Notes under the pieces: model-generated
The model's input: the letters and a program-made list of their open reading frames with translations, nothing else
Databases searched by the model: none
Told to the model about the DNA's origin: nothing
Made by a program: the position numbers and the translations under genes
Part shown: one piece after another, positions 4,971 through 33,567 of the stretch
Layout: every line of letters begins with the position of its first letter
How positions within the stretch are numbered: position 1 is the first letter of the stretch
Assembly: GCA_965261975.1 (NCBI GenBank)
Contig: CBDHEC010000048.1
Span: forward strand, 1 to 33,567
Length of the DNA stretch: 33,567 bases
Direction: 5' to 3'
Source of the DNA: Alphaproteobacteria bacterium
Lineage (GTDB): Bacteria; Pseudomonadota; Alphaproteobacteria; UBA6615

Positions 4971-5954
4971 CTAGAGACCGAACACCCGGACCGCGTTGTC
5001 GCCCCGGATCGCAGCGACTTCGCTCGCCGGGCGCCCGTCGACCAGTTCATACAGCTTGGTCATGTCCGCCGGCATTGGCAGGTCGGTGCCGAACATGACC
5101 TTTTCCGGCCCCGCGATGTCGATCACCAGCTGAAGCGCCGCCGGGTCGTAGACGATCGCGTCATAGTAAATCTGGCTGAAATAGTCGCTCGGCAGCTTGG
5201 GTATATCGAACTTCGCCAGCGTCTCGACACCGAAGAACATGTCCACCCGCCCGTTGACGAACGGGATGTAGCCGCCGCCATGGCTGGCGATGAGCTTGAT
5301 GTCCGAATAACGCTCGAAGAAGCCGTCGATGGCCATGCGCGCGAGGGCGATGGTGGTGTCGTACATGAAACCCGCCGCCGGCATCAGGATACGCTCATGG
5401 CCGTAGTTGACGTCCTTGGCCCCCAGGGGCGCTGTCGGATGGACGAGCACCGGGAAGGCGCGCTTGTCCAGCGCCTCCCAGACCGGCGCGAACAGCGGAT
5501 CGATCAGGTGCCGCTGGCCGATATGGGCCACGCACATGACCCCCACCGCACCGAGTTCGATGCAACGTTCGAGCTCGGCCAGCGCCGCATCGGGATATTC
5601 CCACGGCAGGGAGGCGAACCAGCGGATACGGTCCGGATAGGCCGCCTGCCCGGCGGCCATCTCGTCGTTGGCGATCCGCGCGGTCGCGACGCTGACGGCT
5701 TCGTCGCCGAAATGCACGTTGGGCGATGTCAGGGAGACGATGGAGATGTCGATGCCCAGCCGGTCCATCATCTCGACCCGTGCGTCATAGTCGAAGGCCT
5801 CGACCTCGAGCGCGCAGGCCGGCGTGCCGTACTCGACCAGATAGTTGCGCCGATCTTCCATATCCGCAATCTTGTATGCGGGCGCGCCATGCTTCTTGAT
5901 CATGTCGAGCCAGCCATCGCCGAACATGTGGGTGTGGATATCGATGGTGGGCAT
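4971..5954 (-). CDS. Amidohydrolase_2 family protein (ACMSD/LigW-like decarboxylase or hydrolase)
   Basis: IDIHTH, VLVHP, SHGGGYIP, YYD, VMFGTD motifs. Confidence 0.88.
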   Translation of the reverse strand: MPTIDIHTHMFGDGWLDMIKKHGAPAYKIADMEDRRNYLVEYGTPACALEVEAFDYDARVEMMDRLGIDISIVSLTSPNVHFGDEAVSVATARIANDEMAAGQAAYPDRIRWFASLPWEYPDAALAELERCIELGAVGVMCVAHIGQRHLIDPLFAPVWEALDKRAFPVLVHPTAPLGAKDVNYGHERILMPAAGFMYDTTIALARMAIDGFFERYSDIKLIASHGGGYIPFVNGRVDMFFGVETLAKFDIPKLPSDYFSQIYYDAIVYDPAALQLVIDIAGPEKVMFGTDLPMPADMTKLYELVDGRPASEVAAIRGDNAVRVFGL

Positions 5955-6837: not shown

Positions 6838-8010
6838 CTACACCACCTGTCCACACGCGTGGCCCGAGGCCCAGGCCCATTGAAAGTTGAAACCGCCCAG
6901 ATGGCCGGTAACGTCGACGGCCTCGCCGACAAAATACAGGCCGGGAACCGCTGAAACCTCCATGGTCTTCGACGAGAGCGCGTTCGTGTCGACGCCGCCG
7001 ACGGTGACCTCCGCCGTGCGGTTGCCCTCCGATCCGTTGGGCGTGACAACCCAGGCGTTGACCTGTTCGGCCAGCCGGCGCAGCGCTTTGTCGGAGGCTT
7101 CGGCCAGCCGGCCGGCACAGTCGGCCCACGCGACCAACTTCTGGGCCAGGCGTTTGGGCATTAACTGCGCCAGCACTGTCTGGACTTCCAGTTTCGACTG
7201 GGTCTCCTTGGCGTCTTTCAGGTACCGGAACAAATCCGTCCCCGGCAGTAGATCGATCGTGATCGTGTCGCCGGCGCGCCAATAGGACGATATCTGCAGG
7301 ATCACCGGGCCGCTCAGCCCTCGATGGGTGAACAACAACGCCTCGGTGAATCGAATCTTCCCCAGCGTGACCGTGGCGTCCAGGGATACCCCGGCGAGCC
7401 CATCCATCTGCGCCAGGAAAGCCGGATCGAAGGTCAGGGGCACCAAACCGGGCCGCGGTTCGATTACGTTTAGGCCGAACTGCCGGGCGACGTCATAGGC
7501 GAAACGGCTCGCCCCCATTTTGGGTATCGACGGGCCACCGGTCGCGATGACCACGGCGTCCCCGACATAGGCGCCATGATCGGTCTCGACGGTAAAACCC
7601 TGTTCGTCTTTCGCGACACCGCAGATATTTACCCCGGTTTGCATGGTCACCCCCTTCGCCTCGGCAACGAGCATATCGATGATCTGCTGGGCCGACCCGT
7701 CGCAGAACAGCTGGCCGTGGTCGCGCTCGTGATAGGCGATGCCATGACGTTCCACCAACCGGATGAAATCATGCTGCGTGTAGCGGGCCATGGCGGAGAC
7801 GCAAAACCGCGGATTGTCCGAAAGATAGTTTTCAGGGGTCGCGTACAGATTGGTGAAATTGGCACGCCCCCCGCCGGAGATACGGATTTTCTGTGCAACC
7901 TTCGACGCGCCTTCCAGCACCAGCACCCGCCGCCCGCGCCGGTTCGCTTCCGCCGCACACATGAGGCCCGCCGCCCCGGCACCGATAATAATGACGTGGA
8001 ATCTGTGCAT
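6838..8010 (-). CDS. NAD(P)/FAD-dependent oxidoreductase, HI0933/YhiN(BaiN) family
   Basis: IIGAGAAG, KIRISGGGR.NFTN, LFTHRGLSGP, AEVTVGGV, GEAVDVTGHLGGFNFQWAWASG. Confidence 0.92.
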   Translation of the reverse strand: MHRFHVIIIGAGAAGLMCAAEANRRGRRVLVLEGASKVAQKIRISGGGRANFTNLYATPENYLSDNPRFCVSAMARYTQHDFIRLVERHGIAYHERDHGQLFCDGSAQQIIDMLVAEAKGVTMQTGVNICGVAKDEQGFTVETDHGAYVGDAVVIATGGPSIPKMGASRFAYDVARQFGLNVIEPRPGLVPLTFDPAFLAQMDGLAGVSLDATVTLGKIRFTEALLFTHRGLSGPVILQISSYWRAGDTITIDLLPGTDLFRYLKDAKETQSKLEVQTVLAQLMPKRLAQKLVAWADCAGRLAEASDKALRRLAEQVNAWVVTPNGSEGNRTAEVTVGGVDTNALSSKTMEVSAVPGLYFVGEAVDVTGHLGGFNFQWAWASGHACGQVV

Positions 8011-8198: not shown

Positions 8199-9140
8199 AT
8201 GATCCTGGTACTCACGGTTACGATACCAATCTTCGTCGTGATCCTGGCCGGTTACGTTGCCGCCAAGCGCGCAATCATGGGCAAGGAGAGCATCAAGGCC
8301 TTCACGTCCTTCGTCTTCTATTTCTGCCTCCCGCTGCTGTTGTTCCGCAACCTGGCCGACGCCCCGGTGGCCGAGCAATTGCGCGGAGACTACGTGCTGG
8401 CATATCTGCTGGGCGGGCTCACGTCTTTCGCCGTGGGCTATGCGGTCGCCAGGTGGGTCTTCAACTGCACCGTCGCCGAGCGGGCCGTCCAGGGGTTGGG
8501 GGTTTCGTTCGGTCACACCGTGTTCATGACCATTCCCATCGGCTTGGCCCTGTATGGCGAAGCCTCGGTCCTGCCCATCGCGCTCCTGATCACGGTCGAG
8601 ATGGCCGTCATCGTGCCCCTGGCCATCGTGCTGCTGGAAATCGACAGCGGTGAACGGGGCGGCCTCCTCGCCGTTTCCGGGACCGCATTCCGGGCGATCT
8701 TCTTCAACCCGATCGTCCCCTCGATCCTGCTCGGAATTGCCGCCGCCATGCTCGGGGTGGAGCTTCCCGCGATCCTGAACGGGTTGGTGAACCTGGTCCA
8801 GGGCGCGACGATCCCCTGCGCGCTGTTCGCGATCGGCGCATCGCTCGCCGGGCTTTCCTTCAGCGAACGCCTCGCGGAAACCGGCTTCACGGCGGCCGGC
8901 AAGCTGCTGCTCTACCCGTTTCTGGTCTTCGTTTTCATGTCGATGTTCCCCGACATACCGCCCGAGTGGCGCAACATCGCGATCATCGCCGCGGCCACCC
9001 CGCTGGGGGTCAGCGTCTACCTCGTGGCATCCACCTACGACACCTATGTCAACCAGTCCTCGGCGGCGAGCCTTGTCTCGATGATCTTCGCCGTGGTGAC
9101 CCTGTCCACCCTGGTGGCAATCTTCAGCCCGGCGGCGTGA
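8199..9140 (+). CDS. AEC (auxin efflux carrier/membrane transport) family transporter
   Basis: IPIFVVILAGY, FVFYFCLPLLLF, NPIVPSILLG, PCALFAIGASL, KLLLYP motifs. About 10 TMs. Confidence 0.88.
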   Translation: MILVLTVTIPIFVVILAGYVAAKRAIMGKESIKAFTSFVFYFCLPLLLFRNLADAPVAEQLRGDYVLAYLLGGLTSFAVGYAVARWVFNCTVAERAVQGLGVSFGHTVFMTIPIGLALYGEASVLPIALLITVEMAVIVPLAIVLLEIDSGERGGLLAVSGTAFRAIFFNPIVPSILLGIAAAMLGVELPAILNGLVNLVQGATIPCALFAIGASLAGLSFSERLAETGFTAAGKLLLYPFLVFVFMSMFPDIPPEWRNIAIIAAATPLGVSVYLVASTYDTYVNQSSAASLVSMIFAVVTLSTLVAIFSPAA

Positions 9141-26336: not shown

Positions 26337-26466
26337 TCTGCAAATTACCAACGATCTAATCCACCGTTCGGCCGCTGACGCGATTGTTCACGTGGCCCAC
26401 GCTTGGTATACCTCGGCAACGCGCAGACATGATGCGAAGCGCGCCAACACCGCGGATTTCAAGACC

Positions 26467-27235
26467 ATGACGCGACGCAGAAAAATCTATGAAGGCAAGG
26501 CGAAGGTCCTCTTCGAGGGCCCCGAGCCAGGCACGCTGGTGCAATATTTCAAGGACGACGCGACCGCCTTCAACAACGAGAAGAAGGGCGTCATCACCGG
26601 CAAGGGCGTCCTTAACAACCGGATTTCCGAGTATCTGATGCTGCGCCTGGCCGAGGTCGGTATCCCGACCCATTTCGTGCGACGCCTCAACATGCGCGAG
26701 CAGCTGGTCAAGGAAGTCGAGATCGTCCCGGTCGAGGTCGTGGTGCGCAACATTGCGGCGGGCTCGATCTGCAAAGCGCTTCAACATCGAGGAAGGCACA
26801 CCCCTGCCCCGCTCGATCGTCGAATATTATTACAAGAATGACGAACTGGGTGATCCGCTGATCTCGGAAGAACACATCACCGCCTTCGGCTGGGCCGCCC
26901 CGCCGGAGATCGACGACATGCTGTCGCTCAGCCTGCGGATCAACGACTTCCTGATGGGGCTGTTTCTCGGGATCGGCCTCCGCCTGATCGACTTCAAGCT
27001 CGAATATGGTCGGCTCTACGACGAAAACGACCAGATGCGCATCGTGCTGGCCGACGAGATCACGCCGGACGGCTGCCGTCTGTGGGACGTCGAGACCAAC
27101 GAGAAGATGGACAAGGACCGGTTCCGCCGCGACATGGGCGGGGTCGCCGAGGCCTATCAGGAAGTCGCCCGGCGACTGGGTATCACACCCGAATCAGGGC
27201 AACAGGATATCAAGGGTCCCTCGACCATCCAGTAA
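26467..27235 (+). CDS. purC: SAICAR synthase with a +1 frameshift at 26773-26775 (probable sequencing error)
   Basis: [34 protein letters not shown] in one frame, then [43 protein letters not shown] in the next. Removing one A from TGCAAAGCGC restores ICKRF. Confidence 0.93.
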
Positions 27236-27256
27236 CACAACCTGTCGGCGGTTCCG

Positions 27257-27271
27257 TTGAAAGCACGCGTG
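27257..27271 (+). pseudogene. purS: First five codons of purS, truncated at the junction
   Basis: TTG AAA GCA CGC GTG = MKARV, the usual alphaproteobacterial PurS start, 21 nt after the purC stop where purS is expected. The following ..LK..VLDPQG is absent. Confidence 0.6.
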
Positions 27272-28703
27272 TGCTGTTCCCCCAGAGGAGCATCAAGGTG
27301 TTGTACATCACGCTCGATGCGATATGCATTGCCCACTTGTACCGCCAGCTCTATCCCCAGTCGTTTCGCATCCCGGGTGCACGCCCTGGCACGACCAAGG
27401 CCAAACTGATCCATGACGTGGCCATGGAGCACGATGAGGAAATCTTTGCGAAACTGTTCCGCATGCCAAAGATTCAGAGCAAGCGCAAAACGCACCACTT
27501 TCGCTACTCGCTACAGACGGACGGATACAGCGTAGCGCTGAGCTTTGGGCGCTGGGTCCAGTCTGCCCCCAAACCAAAGACTGATAAGTCGCGAACGAAG
27601 AAGCGCAAGACGAAACAATCGTCATCGGCCACGACCAAGAGCGTGACCGAGCTCCAGCCAGGGTATGCGTACAGTTACCAAAACAAGACGCTTAACTCAC
27701 TCGACCAGCTCAAGGGTATAACGTTCCGGGCTGTGGATCCAGGTGTGCTTAACACCTACATTTCGGTGGACTTGCTCACCGATGACCCCGACGTTCGTTC
27801 GTCTAAGAAAACGTTGAAGTCAAGCACGTGGCAAGTGCGGACCAAGGCCAAGAAACATGGCGACAAGGTGGACAAATGGCGAAACGCAAAGCTCGGTGAG
27901 GTCCAGAAACGTCTCAATACCACGCCATACCGCACGTCGGCCAGTGCTAAACGATACGGAAAGTACGTGGACAACGTTTTCCAACACTGGGATGCGTTGT
28001 GGGCCTTTGCGACCCAACCCAAGGTGCGCAAGGAACGGTTCCGAGCGTACATCAACAAACAGCGGGCGCTAGACCGCGTCGTCAATGAACTGTGCAAACC
28101 ACGTCCAGGTGACTCAAAGGTCCTACTGGTGTTTGGCAACGCCGCCTCGACCAACTTGTTCGGCAAAACGAAGAATAACGTGAAAGGTCCAGCTCGGAAG
28201 ATATTCAACACGGTTGTACGTCAAAAGAAAGCTGTGTGTATCTGGGCGGACGAATTCCGCACGTCCAAGCTACGGCATTGAAGGAGACACCCGTGGCTCA
28301 CCCGCCTGAGACACGTCCCGAACACTTAAAGCCGGTACGGTGCAAAGCAGAGCATCACGCGCAAGATGCTCGTGGCTGTCGCTGTTTCTGTTCGTACCGT
28401 GTCAAAGACAAAAAGTGCAACGCGAAACGTACCAAGAGTCGATGGTGCGATACCCATTTCAAACCACAATTTCAATACCGTGTGTGCTACTCTAAAACGG
28501 ATAAAAAGACTAAACATGGGCACCGTATGTGGAACCGGGATATGGTCGGTGCCATTAACATTGGCTGCCTGTTTCTCGCACAAGTGCTCAGTTTGGAAAC
28601 CTCGATATGGACGCGAGGTACTGACCCGAATGTAATTACATTAGTGTCGTTGGCTGAGAAGGGTGTGCATTGCCATTCTCGCTCCCTTCGACACACCATC
28701 TGA
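27271..28703 (+). pseudogene. Fanzor1-like (eukaryotic TnpB-derived) RNA-guided nuclease, 5'-truncated, frameshift near 28270-28290
   Basis: LFPQR...YITLD, QTDGYSV (27517), RuvC-I AVDPG (D 27736), LVFGN, RuvC-II DEFRTSK (E 28252), then in another frame RuvC-III WNRD..GAINI (D 28539). Basic TKKRKTK NLS-like patch. Confidence 0.85.
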
Positions 28704-28790
28704 AAAGGTGGTCTTTATTGATGAATGCTAGGAAGATGGATACACATGTGCAGTACCGCTAAGATCTTCCTAGTCTGACAATAAAAATGG
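28629..28790 (+). ncRNA. Candidate Fanzor omegaRNA scaffold / element right end
   Basis: Stems GTGTCG/CGACAC (28644-49/28689-94) enclosing GAGAA/TTCTC; ACCATCT-GAAA-AGGTGGT hairpin (28695-28712); TTTATTG/CAATAAA (28714-20/28779-85) enclosing CTAGGAAGAT/ATCTTCCTAG (28728-37/28764-73). Located at the 3' end of the nuclease ORF. Confidence 0.55.
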
Positions 28791-28815
28791 CCATGTGCCC
28801 CTCTCGACAGAAATC

Positions 28816-31800
28816 ATGTCCAGGCCACTTGTTGTGTTGTGTGTCCTTGTTCTTGCCCTTGCTATTCACGCAGAGGACTCAGAACTGCAGATGAAGCTCC
28901 AGAACTTCATGTCTTTATCTGCTGCTGAAAGAGAAGGATTACTACTGGATTGCCCCAACATGTGCCATGGCAAAGGTGCATGTTTAGAAGGAAAATGCCA
29001 TTGTTTTGTAGGTTATACGGGGTATGATTGTCGTAATTCTTCTTGTGATGTATGTGTCATGGGGACTTGTGACAATGGAACATGTATTTGTTATGAAGGA
29101 TGGGGTGGAATTACTTGCCAAATGCGTGTCTGTCCAAATGATTGTTCAAATCATGGCAGTTGTGTTTCAGGGAAATGCCAATGTCATCCTGATTATATGG
29201 GCGAAGACTGCAGTCTACCACGCTGCCCAGGTGATTGCCAAGGCCATGGCACATGTGTGAATGGCAAATGTGAATGTAAAGAAGGATTCAAAGGTGATGA
29301 TTGTGCAATTCGTACTTGTCTTAATAATTGCAGTGGACAAGGAACTTGTATGGGAGGCGTATGCCATTGCTTCCCGGGATATGCTTATGCAGATTGCTCA
29401 GTAAGGTCATGTTCCGTATGTGATCACGGTGATTGTATCAGTGGGACTTGTCGTTGTCATGTCGGTTGGCAAGGTCCTACATGCTCAATTGAAATGTGTC
29501 CAAATGCATGTTCAAGCCAAGGCTCTTGTTTCAATGGCACATGCATCTGTTTTGTAGGATATGAAGGGTTAGATTGCTCAATCCGAAGTTGTCCTAAAAA
29601 TTGTTCAAATCACGGAATTTGTAAGGCAGGCTACTGTTATTGCGATGAAGGATATGAAGGTGTGGATTGTGCTACAAAACTTTGTCCTGATAATTGCAAT
29701 GACCATGGCAAGTGTATTTTTGGCCAATGTGAATGTTTTCAAGGATACAGTGGTCTCAATTGTATTTCACGTACATGTCCCAACCATTGTAGAGAGAATG
29801 GCCGTTGTGTAGATGGAGAGTGTCATTGTGAACCAGGATTTACTGGAACAGATTGTTCACGTTCAAATTGCCCAAATAATTGCTCTGACCATGGGATTTG
29901 TGTACGTGGATCATGTGAATGTTTTACTGGATATCGTGGTGAAGATTGTCTTTATGCATCTTGTCCAAATGATTGCTCTGGTCATGGCCAATGTTCTGAA
30001 ACTGGAGTATGTACATGTGATTCAGGCTACATGAAATTAGATTGTAGTCAGAAACAATGTCCTAACAATTGTCATGGACATGGTCAATGTACTTCATCAG
30101 GACGTTGCCATTGTTTGCCTGGATATACTGGAGTAGATTGTGGTATGAAATCATGTCCTGGGAACTGTGAAGGACATGGACATTGTGACCCTACCTCAGG
30201 AAAATGCACTTGTGATCAAGGATATGGTGGCAAGAATTGCTCCGTTATGGTATGCCCAAATGATTGTTCTTCAAATGGTCAATGTGAGCAAGGCATCTGT
30301 AATTGTGACCCTGGATTTGTAGGGATGGACTGTGCTTATCGCAAATGTCCATCTGATTGCTCAAATCACGGCGAATGTGTGGATGGTGTTTGTCATTGCC
30401 ATGTCGGATGGCAATGGGCAGATTGTTCACGAAAAGCATGTCCGAATGATTGTTCTAGACATGGAATATGCAATGATGGTACTTGTCAATGTGATGTCGG
30501 ATATGAAGGGGTACAGTGTGATGCACTTGCTTGTGTTGATGGATGCATTCATGGAACATGTATTGAAGGTATTTGTCAATGCGATGAAGGATTCCATGGC
30601 ATTGGGTGTCGTGACCATTTGTGTCCCTTGAATTGTTCAGGGCATGGGTATTGTGATGTAGAAACAGGTGAATGTCAATGTCAACTTGGTTGGGGATCAG
30701 AAGATTGTCTTGAGAAGCAATGCGTCCCAGCTTGTCACCCAGATCATGGTACTTGCATCAATGGCCAATGTCAATGTGTAGATGGATGGATGGGAACCAT
30801 CTGTTCTGAGCGCATATGTCCCTCTGACTGCTCTGGTCGTGGGGAATGTAAGAATGGCACATGTCATTGTGATGCTGGATGGCAAGGGGCAGATTGCAAT
30901 GCGAAACAATGTCCACTCAATTGTAATGGCCAAGGTTCATGTATTAATGGCCGATGTTCATGTTATGCGGGATTCACTGGTATGTCATGTGGAGCACGTA
31001 TCTGCTCTGGAGGATGTAACAATGGGAATTGTGATGCTATGAGTGGGACATGTGCATGTGACAAGGGATGGCAAGGCATGCGATGTGATGTGCCTTCATG
31101 CCCACAAAATTGCTCAAACCATGGACGTTGTGAACCAGGAGGTCACTGTGCATGCAGATACCCATACCATGGAGAAGCATGCGAGCTCAAAGCATGTCCA
31201 CTTGATTGTGCAGGTAATGGAATTTGTTTCAATGGTACCTGCCATTGTGTCAACAATTATTGGGGAAAGAATTGTACACTGACTTGTCCAAACAATTGCT
31301 CAGGCCATGGAACCTGTCTCAATGGCAGATGTGCTTGTGAATTGGGATATGGCGGTGTTTCATGCTGTCCCAATAATTGCAATGGCAATGGTAGGTGTTT
31401 AGCAGATGGATCATGCCAATGTCAAGCACCATATGCCGGCAATGACTGCGCATCAACATTCTGTCCAAATAATTGCTCAAACCATGGATTATGTGTCGAT
31501 GGCGCATGCTCATGTGATTCCACATGGTCAGGGGATGATTGCAGTGTTTCCGGATGCCTGAACAATTGTTCTGCTCATGGGACATGCAATGCCCGGGGAA
31601 TATGTGAATGTGATGATGGATTCGGTGGTATGGATTGCAGTGCCGTTGCTTGCATGAACAATTGTACAAATCAAGGTATTTGTACAAATGGGACATGCCA
31701 TTGCTACCCAGGATTTGAAGGAACAGATTGTGCTGTGAATACTTGTCCCCATGACTGTTCTGGGCATGGAACTTGCCATGTAGGATGCTGTGACTGTCAA

Positions 31801-33057
31801 TCAGGATATACAGGAGTCGATTGTTCACTCAGATCATGCCCAGGGCATTGCAATGGTCGTGGTTCATGTGATTATCACACTGGCATATGTCAATGCTGGA
31901 CACCTTTTGAAGGGTTAGGCTGTGAATCATACAATGCTTCTATGAATCCTGAGGATATGACACTTCCTGCAGAACCGCTGCATGCGACAGATGTTGCTGG
32001 ATTACGTGCAGAACAATCAGGACAAGAATTACCTGGGGTAGGCGATAGTTTTGTTGAATTGGAATTGATTCTTACAGATTATCGTGCATTGCCCACTAAA
32101 GGAAAACGTCAATTGAAACTGGCGCATGGTAAACAATACTTGGATGAAGAAAATATTATTAGAGTGATACTAGCCATGGGCAACTTGTTAGATATTCCAC
32201 GTGAAGTCATTGAAGTTGAGGATCCCTTTGCACCTCATCCTGCAGGTGTGATACGTCAAATTGAAACACGTGCTAATACCCTAAGAGTTTCAGCCTTTGG
32301 GATTCGACAAGTCACTAACAATGCACTTGGGTTTGCACAATTGCATATGTATATAGAAGTTGCTGAGTCCATGGCTTCTACCCTCGAATCAAAGGTCAAT
32401 ACTTGGTTGAACAGCCCTGAATTTCCTTCTGCATTGATGAGAGAAGGCATCCAACTCCATGCCAATGAGAATGTCGCCATTACACGCGTGTCCATCACCA
32501 ATGGTCGATCTGTTCCTATCGTTGATCGCATGCGTGTGCGATGTAAGCGATGTCACTCTCCTCTCATTGCCTCCCCTGATCACAATGCGGCAAAGAAGAT
32601 TGAATTCGCCTGTACACGCACATGTACATCCCAATGTGATACTTCCTGTCGTGCATTCCATTCACCCAAAGCTACCAAGTGTGCATCACGCCTTCACCCA
32701 CGTTCACATGATGCTATTCCTATTCCTTCTCCTGTGAGCTCACATATGGCATCTTCTTCAAATGATTCTTTGGCAATTGATGCCAGTGGCTCCTTTGTGC
32801 TTCTTATTGTTGATGAAGCAAAGGTGACAATGCCTAACGTGGACGATCGATCGCAATTAGATATTATTACCCAATGTCTGAATGATTGTGCCACACAATG
32901 TATTGATCATTGTGTCTCAGATTATAGTCCAGGAGATGAATCTTTCGGACGTGGAGGACCATCGGCTGCGCTTACGGGGCAACCAAACACTTCACATTTG
33001 CCAAGACATTTGAAATCTGATGATTTAACGCATAATCCTACCACACTTGCACCATAG
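28816..33057 (+). CDS. Secreted tenascin-like EGF-repeat protein (1413 aa), eukaryotic type
   Basis: Signal peptide MSRPLVVLCVLVLALAIHA, 32 six-Cys repeats of type CPNxCSxHGxCxxGxCxCxxGYxGxDC, then a ~377-aa non-EGF C-terminus. One uninterrupted ORF with A/T-ending codons. Confidence 0.9.
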   Translation: MSRPLVVLCVLVLALAIHAEDSELQMKLQNFMSLSAAEREGLLLDCPNMCHGKGACLEGKCHCFVGYTGYDCRNSSCDVCVMGTCDNGTCICYEGWGGITCQMRVCPNDCSNHGSCVSGKCQCHPDYMGEDCSLPRCPGDCQGHGTCVNGKCECKEGFKGDDCAIRTCLNNCSGQGTCMGGVCHCFPGYAYADCSVRSCSVCDHGDCISGTCRCHVGWQGPTCSIEMCPNACSSQGSCFNGTCICFVGYEGLDCSIRSCPKNCSNHGICKAGYCYCDEGYEGVDCATKLCPDNCNDHGKCIFGQCECFQGYSGLNCISRTCPNHCRENGRCVDGECHCEPGFTGTDCSRSNCPNNCSDHGICVRGSCECFTGYRGEDCLYASCPNDCSGHGQCSETGVCTCDSGYMKLDCSQKQCPNNCHGHGQCTSSGRCHCLPGYTGVDCGMKSCPGNCEGHGHCDPTSGKCTCDQGYGGKNCSVMVCPNDCSSNGQCEQGICNCDPGFVGMDCAYRKCPSDCSNHGECVDGVCHCHVGWQWADCSRKACPNDCSRHGICNDGTCQCDVGYEGVQCDALACVDGCIHGTCIEGICQCDEGFHGIGCRDHLCPLNCSGHGYCDVETGECQCQLGWGSEDCLEKQCVPACHPDHGTCINGQCQCVDGWMGTICSERICPSDCSGRGECKNGTCHCDAGWQGADCNAKQCPLNCNGQGSCINGRCSCYAGFTGMSCGARICSGGCNNGNCDAMSGTCACDKGWQGMRCDVPSCPQNCSNHGRCEPGGHCACRYPYHGEACELKACPLDCAGNGICFNGTCHCVNNYWGKNCTLTCPNNCSGHGTCLNGRCACELGYGGVSCCPNNCNGNGRCLADGSCQCQAPYAGNDCASTFCPNNCSNHGLCVDGACSCDSTWSGDDCSVSGCLNNCSAHGTCNARGICECDDGFGGMDCSAVACMNNCTNQGICTNGTCHCYPGFEGTDCAVNTCPHDCSGHGTCHVGCCDCQSGYTGVDCSLRSCPGHCNGRGSCDYHTGICQCWTPFEGLGCESYNASMNPEDMTLPAEPLHATDVAGLRAEQSGQELPGVGDSFVELELILTDYRALPTKGKRQLKLAHGKQYLDEENIIRVILAMGNLLDIPREVIEVEDPFAPHPAGVIRQIETRANTLRVSAFGIRQVTNNALGFAQLHMYIEVAESMASTLESKVNTWLNSPEFPSALMREGIQLHANENVAITRVSITNGRSVPIVDRMRVRCKRCHSPLIASPDHNAAKKIEFACTRTCTSQCDTSCRAFHSPKATKCASRLHPRSHDAIPIPSPVSSHMASSSNDSLAIDASGSFVLLIVDEAKVTMPNVDDRSQLDIITQCLNDCATQCIDHCVSDYSPGDESFGRGGPSAALTGQPNTSHLPRHLKSDDLTHNPTTLAP
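28951..31923 (+). repeat. Array of 32 degenerate tenascin-type EGF coding repeats (~93 nt unit)
   Basis: Counted from the translation, from CPNMC... to ...FEGLGC. Diverged at the DNA level. Confidence 0.9.
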
Positions 33058-33084: not shown

Positions 33085-33567
33085 TTATTGATAAAGTTGA
33101 ATTTCCTTGATTGAGGAGAGGAGTTGAGAGGCTGTTACACTTACAATATGCTCCTGATCCCTTTTCATTTGTTTTAAGAATGTAACTATTGGAGTCCATG
33201 AATTATATTGCGAGGGCAATTGTGAACATGCAAGTAAATGCTTGATGCAATCACAATAGGAGAATAGGGTCAATGCCAATGCATCATGGAACCCAGAATC
33301 ATTCTCAGTAACATCATGTGCCAAAGTACCAATGAGAATTGAATCACCCATAAGATGAATGAGTTCAGAAAGGTTAGATGTGGTTAGACCATCACTTTTA
33401 GCCCATTCATCATTAAGTACCATCTCAAACAGTTGAAGAACAAGTCTAATGTGCCCGTGATGATTTAAGAAACATTTAAGCATGGGTGTCGCATTTCTAA
33501 GACATTCAATAAGAGAATGCATGAATTCATTCAATTGATCTCTCATACCTCCATCTTCTATCATAGC
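33085..33567 (-). CDS. C-terminal part of an alpha-helical (possibly ARM/HEAT-like) protein; frame open to the window end
   Basis: No stop from the window edge to TAA at 33085-33087. Leu-rich amphipathic helices, AT-rich codons. Family is a guess. Confidence 0.55.
   Translation of the reverse strand, partial: AMIEDGGMRDQLNEFMHSLIECLRNATPMLKCFLNHHGHIRLVLQLFEMVLNDEWAKSDGLTTSNLSELIHLMGDSILIGTLAHDVTENDSGFHDALALTLFSYCDCIKHLLACSQLPSQYNSWTPIVTFLKQMKRDQEHIVSVTASQLLSSIKEIQLYQ

Follow-up and report, generated by a model that had tools for sequence, protein, structure and literature searches.

The window analysed here is a complete contig of 33,567 nucleotides (nt) (C48; CBDHEC010000048.1) from the 3.03-Mb, 59-contig assembly GCA_965261975.1 of an alphaproteobacterium of the lineage UBA6615. 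Towards its end it carries a damaged copy of a gene for Fanzor1, the branch of the RNA-guided TnpB/Cas12 RuvC nucleases found in eukaryotes and giant viruses. In the reading that we prefer, and to which we give a probability of about 0.8, positions 27271 to ~28760 are the 3′ two-thirds of a Fanzor1 gene, lying on foreign DNA that is joined chimerically to the bacterial contig. The gene, truncated and broken in its reading frame, adds a new and divergent member to a known family, and the DNA that carries it is almost certainly not the bacterium's own. Together with a gene for epidermal growth factor (EGF) repeats and a further open reading frame (ORF), the Fanzor1 fragment makes up a foreign segment of 6.3 kb that stems from a giant virus or a compact eukaryote. 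The guanine-plus-cytosine (GC) content of the window is 0.59-0.66 up to ~27000, 0.50-0.59 over 27271-28700 and 0.42-0.46 beyond.

Family assignment and catalytic residues

An earlier reading of the DNA letters (the sequence-only reading) had described 27271-28703 as a Fanzor1-like gene with six motifs (LFPQR..YITLD, TDGYSV, AVDPG, LVFGN, DEFRTSKL and WNRD..GAINI) and a D/E/D triad at 27736, 28252 and 28539, and had proposed, as checks, a profile search and a comparison of predicted structures with SpuFz1, the Fanzor1 of Spizellomyces punctatus. All six motifs were found, in that order, and searches of both kinds were made. A phmmer search with the 336-amino-acid (aa) first piece of the gene against 1.84 billion representative proteins returned 221 matches at E ≤ 1e-3, 65 at ≤ 1e-10 and 23 at ≤ 1e-30, counts that take in the window's own ORF. 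The best foreign match had an E-value of 1.1e-90, and the best foreign matches were full-length proteins of 550-871 aa with 45-51% identity. Word-based searches yielded four closer proteins (715-741 aa, 55-61% identity). The nearest relative, 78-79% identical to the window, consists of two ORFs of 392 and 317 aa; as both have 19,378 nt as their longest contig, we infer that they are one split copy. Close relatives are annotated only as 'hypothetical protein', apart from three fragments labelled as bacteria known from metagenome-assembled genomes (MAGs). Both the motif set and the homology are far beyond chance.

A broad profile (A1) made from 43 full-length relatives matched the SpuFz1 structure 8gkh in the PDB with E 1.2e-51 over profile positions 4-629 of 673. 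The Fanzor1 proteins of Parasitella parasitica (PpFz1, E 4.3e-38) and Guillardia theta (GtFz1, E 1.7e-33) came after it, and the next matches were Cas12m (E 3e-4) and the ISDra2 TnpB (E 0.025). The Fanzor2 structure 9B0L (PMC11832414) was absent among the 13 PDB matches of this profile. When the window piece itself was used as a phmmer query against the PDB, only chance-level matches to AlbC were obtained. Sub-threshold Pfam matches to Cas12f1-like_TNB (E 1.3e-5 to 5.5e-3) were seen in four of the five more distant relatives scanned, and the nearest clusters in the Atlas were Nucleocytoviricota and Mucoromycota proteins with DUF8286 or Cas12f1-like_TNB.

The predicted structures gave the same picture. 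The AlphaFold model of a 700-aa relative, P0002, had a predicted local distance difference test score (pLDDT) of 83.2 and a predicted template modelling score of 0.81. In a Foldseek search of the PDB with this model, Fanzor1 chains occupied ranks 1-7 (E 1.1e-19 to 5.8e-16, template modelling (TM) score 0.50-0.65), followed by Cas12f at 1e-5. Fanzor1 chains also took ranks 1-7 (E 4.2e-8 to 2.7e-3) with the model of the window's own 334-aa piece (pLDDT 88.4), Cas12f following at 1.4e-2, and 9B0L did not appear in the Foldseek rows listed for either model. The likeness to Fanzor1 extends over the full length, the large N-terminal part included; the window itself can be compared only from ~residue 212 onward. 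In the viral library BFVD, the P0002 model found giant-virus and insect-virus 'transposases' as its best matches (E 1e-23 to 1e-17), whereas mimivirus and chlorovirus transposases reached only 2.5e-4 and 1.4e-3 by fold.

The D/E/D residues could be placed on those of SpuFz1. Profile columns DPG, DEF and NRD fall on residues 777, 935 and 1000 of chain 8gkh_P. A tag offset of 394 was adopted for this chain because D383 and N385 both fit, and it converts the three positions to SpuFz1 D383, E541 and D606, which are given as metal ligands in the cited part of PMC10432273. The window residues were assigned to these columns through D372, E544 and D632 of P0002. The D, P and G of AVDPG (27730-44) are invariant in 44 of 44 aligned rows, and so is the Gly of FGN; the Glu of DEFRTS follows 39 residues later. 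In the relevant sections of Yoon et al. (PMC10711439), DPG in RuvC-I sets Fanzor apart from TnpB, and these sections as well as those of Jiang et al. (PMC10530073) describe replacement of the canonical RuvC-II Glu by Gly or Pro, with a relocated Glu ~45 residues on. As far as these sections go, the signature of the window fits both the 'rearranged' Fanzor site of PMC10530073 and the DPG and alternative Glu of PMC10711439. For the TnpB/Fanzor superfamily, the excerpted text of Bao and Jurka 2013 (PMC3627910) gives the motif D-X(125,275)-[TS][TS] ... RD in the C-terminal half, with a C4 zinc finger directly after [TS][TS]-X-X. In the window the D is at 27736, the TS follows 175 residues on at 28261-66 and the RD lies at 28536-41; owing to the breaks described below they are spread over two frames. 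The codons of the triad thus stand where the sequence-only reading had put them, but D and E lie in one frame and the last D in another; as assembled, the gene is interrupted by two single-base insertions and a 13-nt gap, so that it cannot yield a nuclease carrying the whole triad. The start of the proposed span held; its end, 28703, proved to be the stop of the second frame only, and the homology runs to ~28693 in the third.

Among named systems SpuFz1 (8GKH, 9CEU-9CEZ) is the best match by profile and by fold, with the same domain order over nearly the full length and with TDG, DPG, FG(N/D), DE..TS and NRD motifs that align. The window's relatives are, moreover, single ORFs in ~2.1-kb elements with inverted repeats, as the cited portion of PMC10432273 describes for Spu-1. 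The identity in structural alignments, however, is only 14-16%, SpuFz1 is out of reach of a narrow profile, and it has a CxxC after the Glu where the window's clade has an 86-102-residue Cys/His-rich segment; the window copy differs also in being truncated and frame-broken. PpFz1 and GtFz1 (9CF0-3, 9CER-T) match significantly by profile and fold but are more distant than SpuFz1, PpFz1 having large extra insertions and matching in two stretches. The viral Fanzor1-type 'transposases' of Yasminevirus, Homavirus, Hyperionvirus, Tetraselmis virus 1 and Tipula oleracea nudivirus resemble the P0002 model in fold (Foldseek E 1.5e-23 to 7.7e-20, TM ~0.6) and are only 11-16% identical; a scan of IMG/VR for contigs encoding relatives of the clade gave ten pattern matches, none of which was confirmed. 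Fanzor2 (ApmFz2, 9B0L) and ISDra2 TnpB (8H1J, 8EXA) share with the window's family the superfamily's RuvC core and RNA-guided mode of action, but are ~400-520 aa long and without the large N-terminal part, and TnpB reached a profile E-value of 0.025 only.

The junction with bacterial DNA

Bacterial and foreign DNA meet at 27270/27271. The bacterial side found a match in ten of 11 same-genus genomes, and every one of these matches breaks off at query position 971/972, corresponding to window 27270/27271. In a base-by-base alignment, five of five relatives agree with the window up to ...GCACGCGT; four of them run on into a purS-like ORF, and the flanking sequence shown for the fifth (L018, minus strand) is uninformative. 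Homology to Fanzor begins at 27274, possibly at 27271, so that the view of the sequence-only reading, a C-terminal part of a Fanzor1 cut off at the junction, is borne out. At the joint purS is interrupted within its codon 5 and the Fanzor gene near codon 212, and across it the GC content drops from 0.62 to 0.42-0.56. No Fanzor relative was found in any of the 11 same-genus genomes, and the 59 contigs of the genome contain neither another Fanzor copy nor the N-terminal part. Because the bacterial matches stop at exactly the same site and the gene is absent from the 11 same-genus genomes, we take the junction as a chimera: judged from sequence comparison, it is most likely a chimeric molecule or read, or a library or assembly artefact.

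Among 185,579 prokaryote species genomes the clade of the window gene was represented by only four contigs of 586-1112 nt (L020-L023). They consist of Fanzor1 sequence of the clade, two of them filed in MAG records under the label 'bacterium' and the others under Hyphomicrobiales and Bacteroidetes, and are likely to be binning contamination.

On the bacterial side the purC gene is split into two frames: Pfam PF01259 matches with positions 1-101 in one frame and 97-232 in another, and at ~26773 the window has AAA where five of five same-genus relatives have AA. A second extra A is present in a spacer at ~26358 of the bacterial flank. The two extra bases suggest insertion-type errors in the assembly. 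The purS gene may seem missing from the genome only owing to the chimeric join.

Elsewhere in the genome, whose GC content is 0.62-0.65, internal 2-3-kb stretches with GC of 0.42-0.50 were noticed in contigs C3 (~25.5-28.5 kb), C16 (~28-31 kb), C34 (~49-51 kb) and C56 (~103.5-105.5 kb); none of the four contained a Fanzor. A weak tblastn match to the DEFRTS region of relative P0004 (E 0.008) at C7:11622-11762 may be a bacterial TnpB-like gene.

The clade, the window copy and its surroundings

In a quick maximum-likelihood tree of 44 rows, all of them unnamed proteins, the window and its 14 closest full-length relatives fell on one side of a branch with a Shimodaira-Hasegawa-like approximate likelihood ratio test (SH-aLRT) support of 97, and the window belonged to a five-row group with a support of 99; the 14 relatives were chosen by similarity, and the coherence of their group is partly by construction. 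By this sequence comparison the window clade appears as a distinct, well-supported and unnamed clade inside Fanzor1, known from metagenomes only. Twelve of the 14 close relatives have, in the place of the CxxC, a Cys/His-rich segment of 86-102 residues with 6-12 Cys and 6-10 His; in the other two this segment has almost no Cys. The P0002 model is of low confidence there (pLDDT ~48-56, residues 570-610). The regular expression of Yoon et al. needs a CxxC and a shorter spacing from D to E, in the part of PMC10711439 that sets it out, and the spacing in the clade is 171-174 residues, so the expression would miss the clade on both counts. That the clade is an undescribed Fanzor1 subfamily, in which the canonical zinc ribbon was replaced by a Cys/His-rich insert and some members seem intact, is a tentative proposal, and we hold it to be rather less probable than its opposite.

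The window copy is damaged at several places. The relatives align from their residues 212-229 on, so 211-228 N-terminal residues are missing; the N-termini of the relatives begin with basic patches. The distance from the anchor AAGCT to the anchor CTGAGAC is 34 nt in the window and 32 nt in 12 of 12 relatives. The two extra bases lie at ~28272-73 and ~28289-92, between the Glu and the last Asp, and the five codons between them (GIEGD) are sensible in the third frame only. The first frame, open over 27271-28272, ends in KLRH-stop. After 28659 the window lacks 13 nt that are present in five of five aligned relatives (alignment A3), which moves ALPFSLPST, matched by tblastn as well, to the third frame and shifts the last ~15-30 codons. 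In the conserved SWAE the Trp is replaced by Leu (SLAE). With the truncation at 27271, the insertions and the gap, the window does not contain the one intact ORF of a functional Fanzor1 locus.

Four other descriptions of the breaks were discarded. An intron at Break 1 is ruled out by the colinearity of 12 of 12 relatives, the window being 2 nt longer, not shorter; nothing was found in support of a programmed frameshift at the breaks. A C-terminal tail in the first frame (APFDTP) was dropped when closer relatives showed that the tail reads ALPFSLPST and lies in the third. Also given up was a one-base shift near 28630 combined with an in-frame TGA at 28655-57, since in the nucleotide alignment 13 nt are missing after 28659 and there is no premature stop.

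Intact relatives consist of a single ORF of ~550-870 aa in an element of ~2.1 kb with terminal inverted repeats. Around the single Fanzor ORF the repeats are 52 nt long in locus L004 (85% complementary) and 28 nt in L002 (89%). In L002, end copies were observed at 5258-5293, 7355-7382 and 8434-8469, the third ~1 kb downstream and perhaps a solo or 'ghost' end of the kind reported for Spu-1. Past the stop codon the relatives share sequence and then diverge, after 43 nt (L006/7/9), ~55 nt (L011/12) or 75 nt (L004/10), and these flanks mark the right ends of the elements. The octamer GGTGGTCT (28707-14) of the window occurs just past the stop in L006, L007 and L009 too. It is followed by a perfect 10-bp inverted repeat, CTAGGAAGAT / ATCTTCCTAG (28728-37 / 28764-73), with a 26-nt loop, and then by AATAAA (28780-85). 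Situated between the EGF gene and the Fanzor remnant, the hairpin and the AATAAA may mark where a transcript ends, or may belong to the right end of the element. The left end of the window element is missing, and the genome has no second copy. A scan for promoters and terminators revealed no excess over shuffles.

By analogy with SpuFz1, the 3′ end of the ORF together with the right element end would be transcribed into a guide RNA; the protein of an intact relative would bind this RNA and, once loaded, cut matching DNA with its Asp/Glu/Asp RuvC site. Synonymous-codon identity was 0.77 over SWAEIF..LP and ~0.25-0.5 elsewhere, a small count from non-independent pairs; this hints weakly at an RNA that extends over the ORF's 3′ end. 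The window copy as assembled is incapable of RNA-guided cleavage, with 211-228 codons missing, the insertions and the 13-nt gap.

The EGF gene (Table 1) encodes a protein with a signal-peptide-like start and ~30 EGF repeats of the teneurin/tenascin type. Its C-terminal ~430 aa had no relatives in the Atlas or in a homologue search and matched no Pfam family. The tight packing of the genes is in keeping with a giant virus or with a highly compact protist. On the metagenomic contig of relative L002 (75.8 kb, 68% GC), an ORF of 563 aa that encodes a primase AEP domain of the C962R type (1134-2825, E 8e-9) was observed 2.6 kb upstream of the Fanzor1 gene, a possible giant-virus or virus-like context.

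Table 1. Features of the window around the junction and in the foreign DNA.
Feature	Position	Strand	Content	Basis
purC (SAICAR synthetase), bacterial	26392..27235	+	split into two frames; extra A at ~26773	
purS, first 14 nt, bacterial end	27257..27270	+	start codon at 27257; junction 27270|27271	
Fanzor1 fragment, first frame (frame starting 27238)	27271..28272	+	~residues 212-550 of the 700-aa relative P0002; LFPQR..YITLD from 27274; TDG (T of TDGYSV) 27517; RuvC-I Asp (AVDPG, GAT) 27736-38; Gly at canonical RuvC-II site (FGN of LVFGN, GGC) 28135-37; relocated Glu (DEFRTS, GAA) 28252-54	tblastn with P0002-P0009 and P0162-P0165; model
Break 1	28272..28292	+	two single-base insertions ~18 nt apart, net +2 nt	nucleotide comparison with 12 relatives
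Fanzor1 fragment, second frame (frame starting 27237)	28290..28659	+	Cys/His-rich insert instead of canonical zinc ribbon; RuvC-III Asp (WNRD..GAINI, GAT) 28539-41; helix GAINIGCLFLA; SLAE (SWAE in relatives)	tblastn; nucleotide alignment
Break 2 and tail	28660..28762	+	13-nt gap after 28659; conserved end ALPFSLPST to ~28693 in third frame, stop 28760-62; second-frame stop 28701-03	
Likely right-end region of element	28707..28785	+	octamer 28707-14; inverted repeat; AATAAA	weak evidence
EGF-repeat gene	28816..33057	+	1413 aa, intronless, secreted-looking	Pfam EGF_TEN 4.7e-231; EGF_Teneurin, 31 stretches
160-aa ORF	33085-33567	-	runs off contig end; convergent with EGF gene, 27 nt from its stop	no Pfam family

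Alternative explanations and significance

Several results weigh against the preferred reading. A narrow profile of seven rows (the window and six close relatives) matched no Fanzor in the PDB at E ≤ 1, and Pfam found nothing in the Fanzor pieces of the window or in nine close relatives, so that the link to SpuFz1 rests on intermediate sequences and predicted folds. A CxxC within 6-20 residues after the Glu is absent from the window and from all 14 close full-length relatives, versus 15 of 17 distant ones that have it; a further 12 rows did not fit the regular expression and were left out of this count. At the joint there is no long shared sequence to account for a misjoin in a de Bruijn graph. 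The 3′ region folded no better than shuffles (z = -1.65), RNAalifold with six sequences produced a helix around the SWAE..FSLP codons in which the pairs were invariant and without covariation, so that it is neutral on the presence of an RNA, and Rfam returned one chance match (E 0.91) over 27200-29000.

It is hardly credible that the gene is a bacterial IS200/IS605 or IS607 TnpB instead of a Fanzor. The RuvC D..E..D layout is common to both and the sub-threshold Cas12f1-like_TNB matches of distant relatives point in this direction, but the broad profile reaches SpuFz1 over nearly the full Fanzor1 length with an E-value of 1.2e-51 compared with 0.025 for ISDra2 TnpB, the relatives have 550-911 aa and basic N-termini, and the flanks are eukaryote- or virus-like. 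DPG and a relocated Glu with Gly at the canonical site are Fanzor signatures in the cited sections of PMC10711439 and PMC10530073. The preference of the sequence-only reading for Fanzor1 over IS605/IS607 TnpB is thus upheld by the profile matches, the two fold searches, the DPG motif and the relocated Glu. We also consider it very improbable that the joint is real, that is, that a free-living bacterium incorporated at least 6.3 kb of DNA from a eukaryote or giant virus into its purC-purS operon and thereby disrupted purS. A real joint would explain why both parts are on one contig and why no long repeat is found for a graph misjoin. It has to be reconciled, however, with two genes cut in the middle of their ORFs (purS in codon 5, Fanzor at ~residue 212), with the absence of the gene from 11 of 11 same-genus genomes and with a foreign part that lies at the contig end, no return to bacterial DNA being seen. 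The other prokaryote records of the clade are four short MAG contigs, seemingly binning carry-over, and the bacterial DNA near the joint contains extra single bases (~26358, ~26773), both of which speak further against a real joint.

For the two single-base breaks, real decay and sequencing error stand at about even odds. The more specific possibility that the source copy was intact and active, the two insertions being sequencing errors and the gene dead in the assembly only, deserves serious consideration, even if we incline somewhat to the other side. The same defect is present in the bacterial flank, where the extra As in purC (~26773) and at ~26358 contrast with four to five of five relatives; the extra base is on the window side in seven of eight isolated single-base differences from the closest relative, and 333 codons are open upstream of Break 1. 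On the other hand, the 13-nt gap and the Trp-to-Leu change in SWAE are atypical of read errors, the adjoining 4.2-kb EGF ORF is unbroken, and decay is common in the lineage: frame breaks occur in five of 12 related metagenome loci, and the nearest relative (78-79% identity) is itself split into two ORFs. The 5′ truncation stays whichever answer holds. As to the source of the DNA, a giant virus (Nucleocytoviricota) instead of a cellular eukaryote, the source favoured by the sequence-only reading, is conceivable at a little under an even chance. The segment is intronless and tightly packed, with 52-113 nt between the Fanzor remnant and the ATG of the EGF gene and 27 nt between the convergent stops at 33057 and 33085; the nearest Atlas cluster is 76% viral, the top BFVD matches (E 1e-23 to 1e-17) are Klosneuvirus-type and Tetraselmis virus proteins, and relative L002 adjoins the primase AEP domain of the C962R type. 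Against a viral source, the window has no viral hallmark gene, the C-terminal 430 aa of the EGF protein and the last ORF are without relatives or families, and relative L006 adjoins a full-length ABC transporter of eukaryotic style.

If the joint were true, it would be a documented transfer of a Fanzor element, as a remnant together with an EGF-repeat gene, from a eukaryote or virus to a bacterium. With the preferred reading, a Fanzor1 remnant on chimerically joined foreign DNA, contig C48 from 27271 onward should be flagged as foreign and trimmed from the genome record, and the purS 'truncation' and purC 'frameshift' in that record are probably not biological. The interest then lies in the remodelled zinc-binding region of the clade and in its apparently intact metagenomic members, rather than in the window copy. 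Surveys based on regular expressions that require CxxC could have overlooked the clade. Its apparently intact members, which by analogy would be capable of RNA-guided cleavage, are candidates for testing as compact RNA-guided nucleases; the window copy is not.

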